DNA from: a virus | Taxonomy: Duplodnaviria > Heunggongvirae > Uroviricota > Caudoviricetes | Virus record (IMG/VR): IMGVR_UViG_2526164666_000034 | Direction: 5' to 3' (one strand) | Length of the DNA stretch: 31,448 nt | Part shown: positions 10,757 to 21,069 of the stretch, piece after piece | How the letters are laid out: each line of letters begins with the position of its first letter | Numbering within the stretch: the first letter of the stretch is position 1 | Translations under genes and position numbers: made by a program | Notes under the pieces: generated by a model | What the model saw: only the letters and a program-made list of their open reading frames with translations | Database searches by the model: none | What the model was told of the DNA's origin: nothing

Positions 10757-11515
10757 ATGAGGAACATAATGGCAGGTTTTTTAATATTCCTGTCTTCTGC
10801 TGCTTATGCTGATATCAATCTGTATGGTCCTGGTGGCCCGCATACAGCCTTGCTTGATGCAGCCAAACTTTATGCCGAAAAAACAGGTATTATAGTGAAC
10901 GTTCATTACGGCCCACAGAACAAATGGAATGAAGATGCCAAAAAAAATGCAGATATCTTGTTTGGCGCATCAGAACAATCTGCTCTGGCTATCATTCGGG
11001 ACCATAAAGACAGCTTCAGTGAAAAAGATATTCAGCCTCTTTATCTGCGAAAAAGTATTTTACTGGTAAAGAAAGGTAATCCTAAAAATATCCGGAGTAT
11101 TGACGACCTGACCAGACCTGGGATTGGCGTAATTGTTAATGATGGTGGTGGTACCAGTAATACATCAGGCACTGGCGTCTGGGAAGATATTGCCGGACGT
11201 AAAGGGAATATAGAAACTGTCGCCGCAATCCGAAAAAATATTATTTTATATGCGCCCAATAGCGGAACTGCACGTAAGGCTCTTGAGAATCAGCCTGGAG
11301 CAGATGTCTGGATAACCTGGGCTGACTGGGCAGCCAGTAATCCAGAAATTGGTGATGTCGTGGAAATAGCGCCAGACTACGTGATATGGCGTGATATGAA
11401 CATTACAGTACGTCAGGATGCAAATGATGAAACCCGTCGATTTGCAGAATGGCTACAAACCGATGAAGCGGCGCCTGCATTCAAAAAATATGGCTGGACC
11501 AGGAAAGGCACTTGA
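10757..11515 (+). CDS. Periplasmic solute-binding protein (ModA-like fold), orphan
   Basis: 252-aa ORF with AAGGAG RBS and a signal peptide (MRNIMAGFLIFLSSAAYA|DI); length and C-terminal ..FKKYGWT.K resemble ModA-type binding proteins; no adjacent permease or ATPase; preceded by ~250 bp of very AT-rich DNA. Confidence 0.6.
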   Translation: MRNIMAGFLIFLSSAAYADINLYGPGGPHTALLDAAKLYAEKTGIIVNVHYGPQNKWNEDAKKNADILFGASEQSALAIIRDHKDSFSEKDIQPLYLRKSILLVKKGNPKNIRSIDDLTRPGIGVIVNDGGGTSNTSGTGVWEDIAGRKGNIETVAAIRKNIILYAPNSGTARKALENQPGADVWITWADWAASNPEIGDVVEIAPDYVIWRDMNITVRQDANDETRRFAEWLQTDEAAPAFKKYGWTRKGT

Positions 11516-12832: not shown

Positions 12833-13887
12833 GTGCGGGTATTACTTCGACCTGTTCCGGTACCGGAACTTGGGTTGGTGGTCCTTAAACCAGGCCGTGA
12901 ATCCATGCAGGTATTCCATAACCCTCGAGTGCTTGTGGAGCCGGAACCGAAAAGCATGCGCGGTCTGCCGTCCGGCATCGTCCCTGCCGTTCGCCAGCCG
13001 CTGGCGGAGGATAAATCATTACTGCCGTTTTTCAGCAATGAGCGTGTGATTCGTGCTGTTGGTGGCGCTGGTGCACTGTCTGACTGGCTGTTGCGTCATG
13101 TCAAATCCTGCCAGTGGCCTCATGGTGACTATCATCACAGTGAAACCGTTATTCACCGTTATGGTACCGGCGCAATGGTGTTGTGCTGGCACTGCGACAA
13201 CCAGCTGCGTGACCAGACATCCGAATCACTCGAGCAACTTGCTCATCAAAACCTGTCAGCATGGATGATTGACGTCATCGGTCACGCAATAAGCGGTACG
13301 CAGGAGCGTGAATTATCTCTGGCTGAATTATCCTGGTGGGCGGTCCGCAATCAGGTGGCGGACGCGCTACCGGAAGCGGTATTACGTCGTTCGCTGGGGT
13401 TGCGTGCGGAAAAATCCGCTCAATGTACCGTGAAAGCGACATCGTACCGGGAGAGCAGACCGCCACCATCATACTGAAGCAGCGCACAAAAAATCTTGCG
13501 CCGCTGCCTCACGCCCACCAGCAAAACCCGCCACAGGAAAAGACGGTGGTCAGCATTGCCGTTGATCCGGAGTCACCGGCTCAGTATCTCCAGCGCCAGA
13601 AACCACAACGGGAAGAGATGCCTGTATACACGCGCTGGGTAAAAACGCAGAAATGCATGACGTGCGGTAATCAGGCAGATGATCCGCATCACATCATTGG
13701 TCATGGACTGGGAGGGATGGGAACAAAGGCTGATGATTTGTTTGTTATTCCGCTGTGCCGTAAATGCCATAGCGAACTACACGCCGGGGTAAAAGATTTT
13801 GAAGAAAAACACGGCAGCCAGCTGTTGTTGCTGATTCGTTTTTTAATGCACGCGAGAAATTCGGGTGTCCTGAAGTGGAAAGCATGA
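12833..13887 (+). CDS. YdfU-like nin-region protein with a Cys/His zinc-binding motif; frame broken in a 5-base homopolymer
   Basis: ORFs 12833..13477 and 13336..13887 overlap in different frames; one extra base in the run at 13410-13414 yields one ~350-aa ORF, the size of Qin YdfU; C-terminal CMTCG...HH..GHG...C.KCHSELH motif. Confidence 0.5.
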
Positions 13888-14253: not shown

Positions 14254-14408
14254 ATAACCACTATTTACAGTTTGTGCGTGAGCAGCTCATTATCGCCACC
14301 GCTGATTTGAGTGGGGCAACAAAAGGTCAGCTTGAAGCCTGGCAGGAGAATGCCATGTTCGATACAGGGCGTTACAGGCGAAAAAAATCCGGTACCGCGA
14401 TGAAGTGA
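14250..14408 (+). CDS. Small 52-aa ORF translationally coupled to rusA
   Basis: ATGA start/stop overlap with rusA; below the ORF-track size cutoff. An extra base in the 7-base run at 14381-14387 would fuse it in frame to the downstream Q-like ORF. Confidence 0.35.
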   Translation: MNNHYLQFVREQLIIATADLSGATKGQLEAWQENAMFDTGRYRRKKSGTAMK

Positions 14409-14416
14409 CTGGAAAA

Positions 14417-14938
14417 ATGATAACGCGGGATAATCCACCAATCCCGGGAAAGCAATCGCTGGCGAAGGTGACGTCAATTCCTCTGGTCAGTCCGGTTGAG
14501 TTTTCGACATCATCGTGGCGGCGGGCTGTTCTGTCTCTTGAAGAACATCATAAAGCCTGGTTGTTGTGGTGTTACAGCGGGAGTATTTGTTGGGAATATC
14601 AGATCGCGATAACACAGTGGGCGTGGAATGAATTTAATACTCAATCCGGTACCAGAAAAATTGCTGGGAAAACGCAGGAACGCCTGAAAAAATTAATCTG
14701 GCTGGCGGCGCAGGCAGTAAAAGCAGAACTTTTTGGTGGGGAAGGTTATGAATATCAGGAGCTGGCATTACTGGCGGGAGTGACAACTAAAAACTGGTCC
14801 AAAACATTTACTCGTCACTGGGTTGCAATGAAACACATTTTTCACCGACTGGATAGTGAGGCTTTATTATTTGTAATGAGAACACGTTCAAAACAAAAGG
14901 CGGCATTTTCAAAGCAAAGTGTTGCAAAAGTAGATTGA
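14417..14938 (+). CDS. Putative late-gene antiterminator (Q-like)
   Basis: ~173-aa ORF (alternative GTG start at 14405) immediately upstream of a terminator, a late-promoter-like element and the tRNA cluster, which is the canonical Q position; family assignment is by position. Confidence 0.45.
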   Translation: MITRDNPPIPGKQSLAKVTSIPLVSPVEFSTSSWRRAVLSLEEHHKAWLLWCYSGSICWEYQIAITQWAWNEFNTQSGTRKIAGKTQERLKKLIWLAAQAVKAELFGGEGYEYQELALLAGVTTKNWSKTFTRHWVAMKHIFHRLDSEALLFVMRTRSKQKAAFSKQSVAKVD

Positions 14939-15133: not shown

Positions 15134-15209
15134 GGCCCTTTAGCTCAGTGGTGAGAGCGAGCGACTCATAATCGCCAGGTCGCTGGTTCAAATCCAGCAA
15201 GGGCCACCA
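15134..15209 (+). tRNA. ileZ: tRNA-Ile (anticodon CAU, ileX/ileZ-like)
   Basis: 76-nt cloverleaf ending GGGCCACCA; closely resembles E. coli ileX as recalled; anticodon loop CTCATAA; encoded CCA. Confidence 0.8.
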
Positions 15210-15210
15210 A

Positions 15211-15286
15211 CCGCCACTAGCCATCAGGAAAGAGCGTCAACCCTTTAAGTTGAGTGTGCGAGGTTCGAGTCCCCGGTGGTGGTCCA
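15211..15286 (+). tRNA. tRNA-like gene, identity uncertain (anticodon loop CCUUUAA, nominal UUU)
   Basis: 76 nt with a 7-bp acceptor stem, perfect 5-bp anticodon stem, TTCGAGT T-loop and CCA end, but a weak D-stem and C at position 33; may be a divergent phage tRNA (Arg slot in Stx phages) or a pseudo-tRNA. Confidence 0.5.
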
Positions 15287-15299
15287 TTATCGGTATTCT

Positions 15300-15373
15300 G
15301 CGTTGTTAGCTCAGCAGGACAGAGCAATTGCCTTCTAAGCAATCGGTCACTGGTTCGACTCCAGTACAACGCG
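15300..15373 (+). tRNA. tRNA-Arg (anticodon UCU)
   Basis: Cloverleaf with acceptor GCGTTGT/ACAACGC, anticodon arm ATTGC-CTTCTAA-GCAAT, T-loop TTCGACT; no encoded CCA. Confidence 0.75.
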
Positions 15374-15388
15374 CTACACTTATTTTCC

Positions 15389-15414
15389 CGGCTCGCTTTT
15401 GCGGGCCTTTTTTG
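15389..15414 (+). terminator. Rho-independent terminator downstream of the tRNA cluster
   Basis: GGCTCGC-TTTT-GCGGGCC hairpin (one G-U pair) followed by a run of six T. Confidence 0.5.
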
Positions 15415-15456
15415 TATCTGCGCCACGCCCGGCGCATACCAACCACAGAGCCTTTC

Positions 15457-15470
15457 GGGGGGGGGGGGGG
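15457..15470. repeat. Run of 14 consecutive G
   Basis: Read directly from the sequence; intergenic, between the tRNA terminator and the TerB-like gene. Confidence 0.9.
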
Positions 15471-15552
15471 AGCTTACGGAGTGGTCAGTGTGACTTTCTC
15501 TGTGGGCAGATCGCTCCCGGGCGTTGGCTCACCCACCCAAAGGAACGTCACG

Positions 15553-15985
15553 ATGTTTGGTATTTTTGGTAAAAAAAGCCCGCAGAGCGGCAACGGAAAT
15601 TAAAAAGTTTGAAAAACGCGATCTGGCACAGGTGGTGATTAACGCCGCCTACCTGGTGGCCTATGCAGATGGTGAATGTGAGGCTTCCTAGAAAGCGAAG
15701 ATCGAACAGGTACTGCGTAATCAGCCTGCGCTGTACGCGTTTACGTCAGAAATTAATGCGATTAGCGCAACCATTATCGGTCAGCTGGATACGAACTTTA
15801 AAACTGGTCGTCGTGCGGCGTTACGTGAGATCGAGGATGTGAAACACGATACGCGTGAAGCGGAAGATGTGCTGGATGTGGCGGTGGCCATTGCGGAGGC
15901 AGACGGCGAAATTGAGCCGGAAGAGCGCAAGGTGCTGGAAGAGATTGCCGGTGTTCTGGGTCTTCGTCTGGAGAATTACCTGTGA
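15553..15985 (+). pseudogene. TerB-like (tellurite-resistance TerB family) gene, disrupted by a frameshift and an in-frame TAG
   Basis: ATG at 15553 with AGGA RBS gives MFGIFGKKSPQSGNGN then a stop; the +1 frame continues ..FEKRDLAQVVINAAYLVAYADGECEAS(TAG at 15689-15691)KAKIEQVL....AIAEADGEIEPEERKVLEEIAGVLGL.., a TerB-like pattern. The 7-base run at 15571-15577 is the likely frameshift site. Confidence 0.5.
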
Positions 15986-16149
15986 CGGTAAAACTGCGCC
16001 TGACTGTGGCTGCACTCCTGCTGTTTCTGGTGGTGATGGTGGATTTCACCAGCAGAATCATGTCGGTGCTGGCGGATGGGGTGCTGGTCTGCGGCATTAT
16101 GGTATTGCTGTGGCCGGTGATAAAAAGAAACAGCCTGCATAATGCTTGA
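15982..16149 (+). CDS. Small hydrophobic protein (55 aa) coupled to the TerB-like gene
   Basis: GTG overlapping the TerB-like TGA (GTGA); translation is largely hydrophobic (..LTVAALLLFLVVMV...VLVCGIMVLLWPV..). Confidence 0.3.
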   Translation: MTVKLRLTVAALLLFLVVMVDFTSRIMSVLADGVLVCGIMVLLWPVIKRNSLHNA

Positions 16150-16349
16150 TTTTTTGTTTGCTGTTTATTAAAAACACTTCTGCATGGTGAATCCCCCTGT
16201 GCGGTGGGGCAATCAGCAAGAAGGAATATGGGGTAATCGCGGATTCAGGTGCTGATACTGAATTCACCGGGAGGCACCCGGCACCATGCTTTGCCACAAA
16301 AGTGTTATTTCTGTTTTTCTCAAACTATCATCGTTATCCCTTTATTTTC

Positions 16350-16376
16350 GGCTGCGCATGGCGCGGCCTTTTTTTT
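16350..16376 (+). terminator. Rho-independent terminator upstream of nanS-p
   Basis: GGCTGCGC-ATG-GCGCGGCC hairpin followed by eight T. Confidence 0.45.
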
Positions 16377-16462
16377 ACGACCAGCCACTGGCAGATGGTC
16401 ATCCTGTGATTTGATTCCGCTTCCGGCTTTTTAACTCTGTTCCTCTACACGGGAGAAATTCG

Positions 16463-18310
16463 ATGTCGATTAAACATTACGATGTTATCAGGGCGGCGTC
16501 GCCGTCAGACCTTGCGGAAAAGCTGACACACAAACTGAAAGAGGGCTGGCAGCCATACGGCGGACCGGTTGCCATTACGCCGTACACACTGATGCAGGCG
16601 GTGGCTATTGAAGGAGAGCCACAGGTCGGCCCTTCATCTGAGCCGGATTGGTACTACGTCATCGTACTGGCCGGGCAGTCCAATGCCATGGCTTACGGTG
16701 AAGGGCTTCCGCTGCCGGATTCTTACGATGCTCCGGATCCGCGCATTAAACAGCTGGCGCGCCGCAGTACAGTTACGCCGGGTGGGGCTGCCTGCAGATA
16801 TAACGATATTATTCCGGCCGACCACTGCCTGCATGATGTGCAGGATATGAGTACGCTGAATCATCCGAAGGCAGACCTGAGCAAAGGGCAGTACGGCTGT
16901 GTCGGCCAGGGGTTACATATTGCCAAAAAACTGCTCCCGTATATCCCGAATAACGCGGGGATCCTGCTGGTACCATGCTGTCGTGGTGGTTCGGCATTTA
17001 CCCAGGGCGCGGAGGGGACATTCAGTGCGGACACGGGGGCCAGCCAGGATTCGGCGCGCTGGGGTGTGGGTAAACCGTTATATCAGGACCTGATTGCGCG
17101 CACCAAAGCTGCATTACAGAAGAACCCGAAAAATGTGTTGCTGGCGGTGTGCTGGATGCAGGGAGAGTTTGACATGAGCGCCGCCACCCACGCACAGCAA
17201 CCTGCGCTGTTTACAGCCATGCTGACACAGTTTCGTGCTGACCTCTCCGTGTTTAACGCGCAGTGCCATGGTGGCAGTGCTGCAGATGTGCCGTGGATTT
17301 GTGGTGACACGACGTATTACTGGAAAAATACCTACGGCACCCAGTACAACACCATTTACGGGGCGTACAAAAACAGGGAGAGTGAGGGCGTTTATTTTGT
17401 GCCCTTCATGACAGACGGTAACGGCGTCAATACCGCCACTAACGCGCCGGCAGAAGATCCGGATATTCCGGCATCAGGATATTACGGTGCGGCATCGAGA
17501 ACGAATGGAAACCAGGTATCATCAAACCGCCCGACACATTTCAGTTCATGGGCGCGCAGGAGCATTATTCCGGATCGTATGGCAACCGCTATTCTGAACG
17601 CAGCCGGGCGCACCTCAGCCTTCATCAGTGGTAAGGCACCGGAAATCAAACCCTCGCCCGGCGGCAACACGCCATCGGGTCCGTCTGCAGATACGTCCGT
17701 TCGCACAATCTCCCTGCTGCCGGCAGCCGGAGAGGCTGCTGCGCAGGGCTGGAGCATTAAGGATGGCGGAATTCAGTTGTCAGATGGTGTATTTAAGATC
17801 ACCAAGCAGAGCAATAAAACCTGGTCCCTGACGCATCCGGTGGATGACGCAATTACCCTGCTGACACAGGGCGGCAGACTGACCTGTAAGTTCCGCCTGT
17901 CAGGCGCACTGACCAACAATCAGTTCGGGCTGGGGATTTATCTGTATACGGATGCTCCCGTTCCTGATGGTGTGGCGATGACGGGTACCGGTAATCCGTT
18001 CCTGATGTCGTACTTCACTCAGACCACTGACGGCAGAGTGAATCTGATGCATCACAGGAAAGCCGGAAACACGAAGCTGGGGGAGTTCGGCGATTACGGT
18101 AACGACTGGCAGACGCTGGAGCTGGTGTTCACCGCCGGCAGTGCCACGGTTACTCCGAAACTGAATGGAGTGGCTGGCCCGGCATTCCAGGTTATAAAAG
18201 ACAGTCTGACACTGGGACTGAATGCGCTGACGGATGTTACAAAAAATGCAGCGTATGGCGTTGAGATAGAAAGTCTGGTGCTGGAGATAAATGCACCGGC
18301 ATCATCATAA
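16463..18310 (+). CDS. nanS: Prophage sialate O-acetylesterase NanS-p (DUF1737 N-terminus plus esterase domain)
   Basis: 615-aa ORF; N-terminus [28 protein letters not shown].. and a GQSN motif block (..[18 protein letters not shown]..) fit the NanS-p proteins encoded between Q/tRNAs and the lysis genes of Stx-type phages. Confidence 0.75.
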
Positions 18311-18459: not shown

Positions 18460-18675
18460 ATGTACCAGATGGAAAAAATCACAACAGGTGTGTCATACAC
18501 CACGTCAGCGGTAGGGACGGGATACTGGTTACTGCAACTGCTGGACAAAGTCTCTCCGTCCCAGTGGGTGGCAATAGGTGTACTGGGGAGTCTGCTGTTT
18601 GGCCTGCTGACGTATCTGACTAACCTGTATTTCAAAATCAGGGAGGACCGCCGTAAGACGGCGCGGGGAGACTAA
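18460..18675 (+). CDS. S: Class II holin / pinholin (phage 21 S21 family) with dual-start motif
   Basis: 71-aa protein [16 protein letters not shown]...[45 protein letters not shown].. resembles S21 as recalled; Met1 and Met4 give holin/antiholin starts; GGAG RBS. Confidence 0.85.
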
Positions 18676-18679
18676 AGCG

Positions 18680-19024
18680 ATGAAGAAAAAATACGAACTG
18701 GTTGTTAAAGAGATAAATAATTACCCGGATAAGATTGCTGTTACTGTGGCACTTGAAATTGGCGGGCATCCGTCGTTGTTGTTGCCACATGTGGCGATTA
18801 GTCTTGACCGTACTGAAGGTGCCACGCTGGAGTTTTACGAAGCTGAGGCGAAAAAGCAGGCGAAGCAGTTTTTCATGGATGTTGCTGCCGGGTTATGTGA
18901 AGGGGATGGTCCGTTACCGGAAAAGCGTCCCGTAATTTTAGAGGCGCAGGATGTGTTGATAACCTACAGAGGAAAACTACCGGGAATAATTACGGGTTCT
19001 CTGAAGACTCCACCGCTGGCCTGA
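18680..19024 (+). CDS. Hypothetical 114-aa protein inserted between holin and endolysin
   Basis: ORF with GGGGAG RBS starting 5 nt after the holin stop; no recognisable family; the canonical S-R arrangement has no gene here. Confidence 0.45.
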   Translation: MKKKYELVVKEINNYPDKIAVTVALEIGGHPSLLLPHVAISLDRTEGATLEFYEAEAKKQAKQFFMDVAAGLCEGDGPLPEKRPVILEAQDVLITYRGKLPGIITGSLKTPPLA

Positions 19025-19074
19025 AGACTTAACATATCCAGGGATTTGAAATCGATAAACCCTGATAAATATCC

Positions 19075-19608
19075 ATGAACGCAAAAATCAGATACGGCCT
19101 GTCGGCTGCCGTTCTGGCGCTGATTGCCGCAGGTGCGCCTGCGCCTGAAATCCTCGACCAGTTTCTGGATGAAAAGGAAGGTAACCACACCACAGCATAC
19201 CGTGATGGTGCGGGTATCTGGACCATCTGCCGTGGAGCCACCCGGGTGGATGGTAAGCCTGTTATTCCTGGCATGAAGCTGTCGAAGGAAAAATGCGACC
19301 GGGTTAACGCCATTGAGCGTGATAAGGCGCTGGCATGGGTGGAGAAAAACATCAGAGTGCCACTGACCGAACCCCAGAAAGCGGGGATTGCGTCATTCTG
19401 TCCGTACAACATTGGCCCCGGTAAGTGTTTCCCGTCGACGTTTTACAGACGGATTAATGCAGGAGATCGAAAAGGTGCCTGCGAAGCTATTCGCTGGTGG
19501 ATTAAGGACGGTGGCAGGGACTGCCGTATTCGCTCAAATAACTGTTACGGTCAGGTATCCCGTCGTGACCAGGAGAGCGCGCTGGCGTGCTGGGGAATCG
19601 ACAGATAA
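19075..19608 (+). CDS. R: SAR endolysin (GH24 lysozyme with N-terminal signal-anchor-release domain)
   Basis: 177-aa protein; N-terminal Gly/Ala-rich weak transmembrane segment (GLSAAVLALIAAGA) followed by a catalytic E..D/C..T block (EGNHTTAYRDGAGIWTICRGAT); the expected partner of a pinholin. Confidence 0.85.
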   Translation: MNAKIRYGLSAAVLALIAAGAPAPEILDQFLDEKEGNHTTAYRDGAGIWTICRGATRVDGKPVIPGMKLSKEKCDRVNAIERDKALAWVEKNIRVPLTEPQKAGIASFCPYNIGPGKCFPSTFYRRINAGDRKGACEAIRWWIKDGGRDCRIRSNNCYGQVSRRDQESALACWGIDR

Positions 19609-19878: not shown

Positions 19879-20448
19879 ATGAATATGATGGCCGTGCCGT
19901 TTCACGGCAACTCTCTTTATGTAGTTAACCATAATGGCGAACCATACGTTCCCATGAAACCTGTCGTTGCGGGGATGGGGCTGGCCTGGCAATCACAGTT
20001 GGCTAAGTTAAGACAGCGTTTTGCGTCAACTATAACGGAAATCGTTATGGTTGCTGAGGATGGGAAACAACGCAATATGGTGTCCATGCCACTTCGAAAA
20101 CTTGCCGGCTGGCTACAAACCATTAATCCCAACAAAGTAAAACCCGAAATCCGCGATAAGGTCATCCGGTATCAGGAAGAGTGCGACGATGTTCTTTACG
20201 AGTACTGGACGAAGGGTTTTGTCGTTAATCCCCGTAAAATGAGCGTGATGGAAGAACTCAACCAGGCTTGTGCTGACATGAAACGGGATAAAAACATTGC
20301 CAGTGTGTTTGCTACCGGGCTGAATGAGTGGAAACAGGTTAAAGCCGCGCATGTATCAAAAATCCGTACGCTGGTAAATGAAGCGAATATGCTGATTGAT
20401 TTTGTCCTGGCTGATACAGGCAAAGGGAAAATAACAAAGGCGGATTGA
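19879..20448 (+). CDS. Putative antirepressor (Ant-like)
   Basis: 189-aa ORF with AAGGAAA RBS; N-terminal pattern (..FHGNSLYVV.HNGEPYVPMKPVVAGMGLAW..) resembles phage Ant/Rha-type N-terminal domains; lies between R and Rz, as in several Stx-type phages. Confidence 0.5.
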   Translation: MNMMAVPFHGNSLYVVNHNGEPYVPMKPVVAGMGLAWQSQLAKLRQRFASTITEIVMVAEDGKQRNMVSMPLRKLAGWLQTINPNKVKPEIRDKVIRYQEECDDVLYEYWTKGFVVNPRKMSVMEELNQACADMKRDKNIASVFATGLNEWKQVKAAHVSKIRTLVNEANMLIDFVLADTGKGKITKAD

Positions 20449-20601: not shown

Positions 20602-21069
20602 ATGAACCGTGTTCTGTGTGTGGTGATTATTGTCATGGCGGTTGGCTGTGGTGCGCTGTGGCTGGCAACAAACCATTACCGTGACAACGCGCTCACCTAC
20701 AAAGCGCAGCGCGATAAAAAAGCCAGAGAGCTGGAACAGGCGAATGCCACCATTACTGACATGCAGGTGCGCCAGCGTGATGTTGCTGCGCTCGATGCAA
20801 AATACTCGAGGGAATTAGCCGATGCGAGAGCTGAAAATGAAACTCTGCGTGCTGATGTTGCCGCTGGTCGTAAGCGCCTGCGGATCAACGCCACCTGCCC
20901 CGGTACCGTGCGTGAAGCCACCGGCACCTCCGGCGTGGGCAATGATGCCGCCGTCGAACTCTCTCCGGTTGCTGGACGAAACGTTCTCGGTATCAGAGAC
21001 GGAATCATCAGCGACCAGGCAGCATTGAGAATGCTTCAGGAATATATCCGCACTCAGTGTATTAACTAG
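20602..21069 (+). CDS. Rz: Rz inner-membrane spanin (i-spanin)
   Basis: 155-aa protein; ..[57 protein letters not shown].. matches lambda Rz as recalled. Confidence 0.85.
20837..21028 (+). CDS. Rz1: Rz1 outer-membrane lipoprotein spanin (o-spanin), embedded in Rz
   Basis: +1-frame ORF inside Rz: [17 protein letters not shown].. with a lipobox Cys and a proline-rich stretch ([10 protein letters not shown]). Confidence 0.75.

Follow-up and report, generated by a model that had tools for sequence, protein, structure and literature searches.

What is the role of a gene that stands between the holin and the endolysin of a prophage? The question is raised by an open reading frame (ORF) of 114 codons in the stretch of viral DNA analysed here (31,448 nucleotides, referred to as the window). 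A sequence-only reading had described its product as an acidic protein of no recognisable family that is co-expressed with the lysis genes and could be a lysis regulator or a moron using late transcription. According to our analysis, the ORF is almost certainly a genuine gene of the YdfR family and an optional accessory gene; we infer that its product is an accessory protein of the late phase and does not belong to the lysis components. Both the gene and the place where it lies have been catalogued before, and the family was already known.

The locus and its expression signals

The window is a lambda-like prophage. Its annotation places an integrase gene at one end (1-1131, - strand) and replication genes at about 7.5-9.1 kb, further on RusA, the antiterminator Q (14405-14938), three tRNA genes (15134-15374; Met-CAT, Lys-TTT and Arg-TCT) and a NanS-p-type sialate esterase (16463-18310), which is followed by the lysis genes, terminase and the head genes. 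No stx gene lies between the tRNA genes and NanS-p (15134-16460), and the Q-tRNA-NanS-p arrangement is the layout of Stx phages minus the toxin. Three other features of the window deserve mention. In the early region, the minus strand encodes a 577-aa protein (1422-3155) that ends in a Rv2179c-like 3'-5' exoribonuclease domain (E 1.6e-67). A 252-aa ORF (10757-11515) with the periplasmic solute-binding domain SBP_bac_11 (E 5.5e-34) is flanked by the replication genes on one side and the DUF968/RusA/Q region on the other, a position for which it is unusual cargo. The DUF968 gene itself appears to be broken up, probably by a frameshift, since two ORFs that overlap each other (12833-13477 and 13336-13887) represent it.

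The pinholin S of the S21 type (71 residues; 18460..18675, + strand) was identified by PF04971 'P21 holin S' (E 1.7e-32) and by the PHROG holin families. Its gene starts with the ATG at 18460, displays the dual-start motif M1/M4 (MYQMEK) and ends with the TAA at 18673-18675. Four nucleotides (AGCG) separate this stop codon from the ATG of the 114-aa ORF, which occupies positions 18680..19024 of the + strand, stop codon included. A Shine-Dalgarno sequence, GGGGAG (18665..18670, + strand), is contained in the 3' end of S, 9 nt upstream of the ATG at 18680, which bears out the earlier description of a well-initiated ORF that interrupts the S-R pair. The SAR-type lysozyme R (177 residues; 19075..19608, + strand; PF00959, E 1.5e-24) has an N-terminus rich in Ala and Gly (YGLSAAVLALIAAGAPAP), as in SAR endolysins. 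It is preceded by a 50-nt spacer (19025..19074, + strand) in which a canonical Shine-Dalgarno sequence for R was not found. The cassette is interrupted a second time between R and Rz (20602-21069, with Rz1 embedded in it) by an Ant-like gene of 189 codons (19879-20448) with P22_AR_N and ORF11CD3 domains; phage 933W has a gene annotated 'ant' at the same place.

A consensus scan of the + strand revealed neither a promoter-like site upstream of the ORF nor a terminator-like site downstream of it. The sole match on this strand between the starts of S and R was a weak terminator-like hairpin of six pairs within the ORF (18760-18775), and the scan as a whole was not enriched, with 9 sites compared to 6.3 ± 2.5 in shuffled sequence. 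Co-expression with the lysis genes, as had been proposed, is most probable given that no promoter-like site was detected on the + strand and that the Shine-Dalgarno sequence resides in the 3' end of the holin gene. Judged from this layout, the ORF would be read from the Q-antiterminated late transcript, with the Shine-Dalgarno sequence near the end of S directing its translation. Two further reading frames were considered as genes and rejected as by-products: a +2-frame ORF (18735-18935) that overlaps the 114-aa ORF, in which selection acts on the main frame, and a reverse ORF (19029-19412) that is antisense to R.

Family membership and coding status

A family was readily recognised, contrary to the first description. 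Residues 1-112 match the Pfam family DUF1327/PF07041 with 145.1 bits (cut-off 25; E 7.4e-43), the protein is assigned to phrog_406 (E 7e-63), and in RefSeq E. coli chromosomes the DNA is 100% identical to a gene annotated as 'YdfR family protein'. The protein is also 100% identical to BCI50133.1 of phage PPyecE_EH1910. DUF1327/PF07041 and PHROG 406 are both catalogued without function. The single paper found to mention DUF1327 does so in a listing, and a literature search for Stx phages with an additional ORF separating S from R yielded nothing relevant.

Of 5426 complete E. coli genomes, 2924 contain DNA that matches the gene, with a coverage of at least 80% in 1258 of them and a maximum of 8 copies per genome. 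The gene is among the commonest E. coli prophage genes without an assigned role; annotations as a YdfR-family or hypothetical protein exist for thousands of genomes of this species as well as for Stx1a and Stx2c phages. A DUF1327 profile search of 1.84 billion representative proteins returned only 91 clusters. On the evidence of these searches YdfR/DUF1327 appears as a very narrow family, known mainly from Escherichia and Shigella prophages.

The length of the ORF is by itself uninformative since the window contains 76 ORFs of at least 90 codons. Comparison of the gene with 29 distinct homologues gave dN/dS values of 0.12-0.44, well below 1 in both halves of the gene, and the reading frame is kept in relatives that are 43-96% identical. 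Together with the Pfam score, these data demonstrate that the ORF is more than a chance reading frame, and the ratios indicate that the gene is under purifying selection.

Structure of the protein

The protein consists of a DUF1327 core (residues 1-74; 18680..18901, + strand), delimited by AlphaFold2 models, the identity with K-12 YdfR and free-standing homologues, and a C-terminal module (residues 75-114, GDGPLPEKRPVILEAQDVLITYRGKLPGIITGSLKTPPLA; 18902..19021, + strand) that recombines apart from the core. In two agreeing AlphaFold2 runs, residues 1-72 were modelled with a pLDDT of about 70-89, with strands at residues 5-14, 18-27 and 37-43 and a helix at residues 50-76; for residues 75-114 the pLDDT was below 50 and no confident fold was obtained. 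The core is characterised by the motif LDRxEGAxLEFYEAxA, of which D-R-x-E-G-x-x-L-E-F-Y-E-A occupies residues 43-55. F52 and E54 are invariant and Y53 is near-invariant (at least 90%) in one alignment (A3), and Y53 and E54 are invariant in another that comprises 20 diverse cores (A5).

The core exists in two deep alleles, which differ by a dS of about 1.5 and both keep the frame and the motif. The dS of the tail between these two core alleles is only 0.13, which points to recombination at about residue 74. The 40-aa tail is absent from K-12 YdfR, and in the database protein P0243 it is joined to a different N-terminal module.

With a mass of 12.4 kDa, a pI of 6.1 and a net charge of -1, the protein is less acidic than had been stated. 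It lacks a transmembrane segment (maximum 19-residue Kyte-Doolittle value 1.09) and a signal-like N-terminus, and Pfam and PHROG revealed no similarity to holin families. The product is predicted to be soluble and to reside in the cytoplasm. Foldseek searches of PDB and BFVD retrieved nothing at E <= 0.001, and a sequence profile search of the PDB gave no match. The homology and structure searches that the sequence-only reading had recommended thus assigned the protein to families and returned no informative structural relative. A resemblance of the core to dsRNA-binding domains (dsRBD) was dismissed as evidence because the beta3-alpha unit is too simple a shape.

An optional insert

The gene is missing from closely related lysis cassettes. 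In 933W, whose S and R are 92% and 97% identical to those of the window, R starts 4 nt past the stop codon of S. The same sequence of S stop codon, 4 nt and R is found in the contig L064, such that S is 92-93% and R 92-97% identical to the window in the two cassettes. A three-way DNA alignment reveals a clean indel whose borders are the stop codon of S and approximately codon 7 of R. In cassettes that lack the insert, R begins with MSRKLRYG and is served by GGGGAG, the same Shine-Dalgarno sequence that precedes the 114-aa ORF. With the insert, R begins with MNAKIRYG after the 50-nt spacer, which is devoid of a Shine-Dalgarno sequence. The first approximately six codons of R (MNAKIR) are therefore part of the inserted module, 933W having MSRKLR instead. 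Since near-identical cassettes do without the gene, it is optional and dispensable. Absence of the ORF from such cassettes had been contemplated beforehand as an argument against a gene, if coding signal were also lacking; it is indeed absent from 933W and L064, yet the coding signal is clear.

In a collection of phages, the holin type is present in 436 records and a YdfR homologue in 101. Among the records with this holin, sorted by record name, a YdfR homologue occurs in 41 of 47 'Stx1a-converting', 15 of 17 'Stx2c-converting' and 2 of 124 'Stx2a-converting' phages. This link between the Stx type and slot occupancy may reflect only the phage backbone (long-tailed versus 933W-like).

The S-R gap as a polymorphic slot

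A sample of 80 viral contigs from IMG/VR was examined, all of them encoding a holin with an identity of 93% or more to that of the window; 71 of them contain both S and R. The gap is occupied in 58 of these 71 loci, a proportion that is not general since the sample leans to the holins closest to that of the window. The assumption that holin and endolysin genes are normally adjacent was not upheld in this sample. In one locus, S and an R of the same type are separated by 4 nt, and in 11 loci S overlaps with an unrelated type of lysozyme. A gap of 399 nt (398 nt in one case) with the 114-aa gene as in the window occurs in 18 loci, and the remaining loci display some twenty other gap lengths between 374 and 1316 nt. 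The comparison of S-R intervals suggested at the outset yielded about 25 different lengths.

Throughout the sample, the stop codon of S and the start of the first + strand ORF, whichever gene this is, lie 1-5 nt apart; the exceptions are two loci with a gap of 687 nt in which no such forward gene follows S. At the right-hand junction, most occupied slots share the spacer of about 50 nt with the pattern '...cttaacatatccaggg..gataaa(t/c)cctgataaatatcc ATGAAC' regardless of their cargo. Only a few slot classes, with gaps of 596, 1027, 687 and 374 nt, deviate from it. An RNA element in the 50-nt spacer was considered and rejected: the sequence is conserved, but its fold is no better than that of shuffled sequences (z -0.32).

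The occupants of the slot are mosaic proteins of 104-329 residues in which the DUF1327 core (residues 1-74) is combined with other modules. The core is continued by the 40-aa tail of the window, by a coiled-coil linker or by one of two larger C-terminal modules. Occupants without the core exist as well, for example proteins of 185-186 and 213 residues. Coreless slot proteins of 162-213 residues (L079:3220-3777, L004:3217-3777, L017:3220-3861 and L051:3217-3705) are composed of an N-terminal coiled coil (MNHEEMNQRFSRLENEIAELNKKLS...) and one of two C-terminal modules, and the same C-terminal modules follow the DUF1327 core in the versions of 263-329 residues. Pfam searches with these other slot modules gave nothing but noise below the threshold, and PADLOC gave no match; the PADLOC-DB defence models matched neither the 114-aa protein nor three longer slot occupants at E <= 0.1.

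The slot frequently contains genes on the reverse strand as well, which represent several PHROG families. In the longer gaps they belong to phrog_2411, 18136, 1853 and 10490, to which a 233-aa ORF has to be added. The S-R gap serves as a slot for polymorphic cargo, and its occupants have undergone domain shuffling. The survey of this gap is useful for prophage annotation and for picking deletion targets and does not disclose a new kind of system.

DUF1327 cores in other settings

The core is not restricted to the S-R gap. Free-standing cores of 71-76 residues, 24-42% identical to the core of the window, are encoded in lambda-like tail gene clusters next to homologues of M, L, K or I, and one lies between a holin of the PF16080 family and its lysozyme. 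These settings are known only where the contigs are legible: among the seven contigs named below, L084, L086, L087 and L090 show the neighbours, and L085, L091 and L095 are too short to show the tail-cluster setting.

The occurrence of cores in tail clusters and beside the PF16080 holin renders a lysis-specific role unlikely, and this bears on the first of the two roles that had been suggested for the gene. As a lysis regulator, the protein would tune the triggering of the pinholin or the release of the SAR endolysin, or the insert would tune the translation of R. The gene indeed has its place within the lysis cassette, and the Shine-Dalgarno sequence that closes S would initiate its translation. 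By the insert, R is moved from a strong Shine-Dalgarno sequence, as in 933W, to a start without one behind the 50-nt spacer, which may lower the R:S ratio. Moreover, a deletion of ydfR in K-12 appears in the hit lists of a screen for envelope leakiness with CPRG (supplement, PMC3879167). However, ydfR is located directly upstream of the lysozyme gene rrrQ, and we suspect that a polar effect of the resistance cassette on rrrQ accounts for the CPRG phenotype. The 114-aa protein has neither a transmembrane nor a signal sequence, the near-identical 933W cassette works without the insert, the core is also encountered with an unrelated holin family, and the slot accepts unrelated proteins. Regulation of lysis by the protein or its insert is consequently an unlikely explanation.

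In 7 of 9 free-standing contexts, a small gene on the reverse strand directly follows the core; the families seen among these genes include phrog_18578, 25324, 10490 and 2572. The pair of core and convergent small gene is seen at L086:4695-5515, L087:3788-4607, L090:449-1001 and L084:1636-2160 and, in further contigs, at L085:446-992, L091:503-1328 and L095:93-616. In these seven contigs the convergent partners are of phrog_18578, 25324 or 10490, which have no known function; a phrog_10490 partner is also found in an S-R slot (L027). Core and reverse gene may form a mobile two-gene cassette. According to this explanation, the forward DUF1327 protein would neutralise or regulate a convergent gene that is expressed in the lysogen (a toxin, exclusion or defence gene), and the copy in the window would be an orphan. 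The recurrence of phrog_10490 and phrog_18578 partners in different slots and the longer S-R gaps, which contain a DUF1327 gene together with reverse genes, are in accord with such a pairing. The pairing is not strict: in about 28 of the 71 sampled loci with both S and R, a DUF1327 gene is the sole occupant of the slot (in 19 of these it is of the 114-aa type of the window), and reverse genes occur alone or with coreless forward genes. In addition, the partner families are heterogeneous, PADLOC reveals no matches, and in L096 and L097 the core is not accompanied by a reverse gene. We consider it improbable that the gene of the window is half of such a pair.

Least of all is the gene likely to be decaying or selfish filler without function for phage or host, a view in favour of which its dispensability, the many truncated or frameshifted database copies (e.g., P0043, P0057, P0114 and P0161) and the cryptic state of many host prophages, Qin included, can be cited, and to which the low dN/dS in both halves, the frame and motif kept by both deep alleles, the presence in inducible Stx phages and the conservation of free-standing cores down to 24-30% identity are opposed.

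YdfR of E. coli K-12 and RNase E

The explanation that we prefer, a late accessory protein, gains content from the homologue in E. coli K-12. YdfR (P76160, b1555) is encoded by the cryptic prophage Qin and belongs to PF07041. The gene order, essQ holin-ydfR-rrrQ lysozyme, is that of the window, ydfR starts 4 nt past the holin stop codon, and the two proteins are 43% identical over residues 1-74, including the LEFYEA motif. The K-12 protein differs in its length of 103 residues, in the C-terminal 29 residues, which are unrelated, and in its stop codon, which overlaps with the start codon of rrrQ (ATGA). The window protein instead has the 40-aa 'PEKRPVILEAQ...KTPP' module, followed by the 50-nt spacer, and its core is the other of the two deep alleles.

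A fragment of YdfR comprising residues 1-72 was isolated three times in a bacterial two-hybrid screen in which RNase G served as the bait; its interaction with RNase E was the stronger one (PMC13232886, RNA Biol 2026). Full-length YdfR gave a two-hybrid signal with Rne 1-597, which was the only partner bound by a short-linker YdfR fusion, and Rne 1-598 co-eluted with Strep-YdfR (PMC13232886). DNase-resistant nucleic acid co-purified with YdfR, for which the authors leave retention of RNA by a contaminating protein possible, and overproduction of YdfR changed few transcripts (PMC13232886). In the grouping of the authors, YdfR is one of the proteins with contacts to the catalytic half of RNase E, for which Srd of T4 is mentioned as a precedent (PMC13232886). 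This N-terminal half, together with RNA, is the sole partner demonstrated for a protein of the family, and the segment of YdfR that binds it, residues 1-72, is the part to which the window protein is 43% identical, with the most conserved motif of the family included.

Transferred to the 43%-identical protein of the window, these data suggest, as the likeliest role, that the core binds a host factor late in infection. An identity of 43% does not guarantee that both proteins have the same partner, and RNase E as the relevant target of the window protein is a possibility that we regard as rather doubtful. The more general reading, in which the gene encodes a late-transcribed accessory protein that is not a component of lysis and whose core binds RNase E and/or RNA and may thereby modulate RNA turnover, is the one we tentatively adopt. 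If we commit ourselves to a guess, the protein would act as a late modulator or adaptor of RNase E-dependent RNA turnover.

In a more far-reaching model, the core is a portable module of late host takeover whose docking site is the catalytic half of RNase E; the swappable tails and the reverse genes would vary the output, and the S-R gap and the gaps in tail clusters of lambda-like prophages would be sites of exchange. We have little confidence in this model. If it were true, the exchanged cargo would consist of modulators of RNA decay or of antidote/effector pairs, and in relatives among the Stx phages it could determine the stability of the late transcript for toxin and lysis.

Returning to the late accessory protein, the gene would share the late transcript with the lysis genes and, in Stx phages, with stx. 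If the link to RNase E holds, it could bear on the stability of late mRNA and thereby on the timing of toxin synthesis and lysis.

Comparison with known systems

S21 and R21 act in the membrane. In phage 21, too, the S and R genes are adjacent. Of the known antiholins and regulators of lysis timing (S21 71, lambda S107, T4 RI), some reside in the membrane or the periplasm and others arise from the holin gene by alternative translation. The 114-aa gene resembles them in being encoded in or near the lysis cassette, but its product is soluble, without a hydrophobic segment, and has a domain that is also encountered away from lysis genes. For these reasons, and with lysis cassettes that lack the gene and cores in tail clusters and beside a different holin family, the designation as a lysis regulator is not supported.

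The second initial suggestion, a moron, comes closer. Morons in the sense of Hendrix are extra genes between conserved genes that are equipped with their own promoter and terminator, such as bor and lom. The 114-aa gene shares with them the presence/absence polymorphism between conserved, near-identical flanks, the sharp junctions and the varied cargo of its slot. It differs in that the consensus scan disclosed neither a promoter specific to it nor a terminator that would be convincing; it would rely on late transcription and the Shine-Dalgarno sequence in S. The reverse-strand genes of other slot versions fit the definition of a moron better than does the 114-aa gene.

The closest functional parallels come from small proteins of phages whose target is RNase E of the host, a target that the window protein may share. 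Srd of T4 binds RNase E and stimulates the decay of host mRNA, and Dip/gp37 of phiKZ blocks the sites at which the degradosome scaffold binds RNA (Qi et al. 2015; PMC4980113). No likeness of the 114-aa protein to Srd or Dip was detected in sequence or structure. The one biochemical property reported for YdfR of K-12 is binding to the N-terminal half of RNase E, and Srd is listed for the same half (PMC13232886). Srd and Dip are proteins of virulent phages, whereas the gene of the window belongs to the late operon of a temperate phage. Should the link to RNase E hold in infection, the YdfR-family protein would be a temperate-phage counterpart of T4 Srd.
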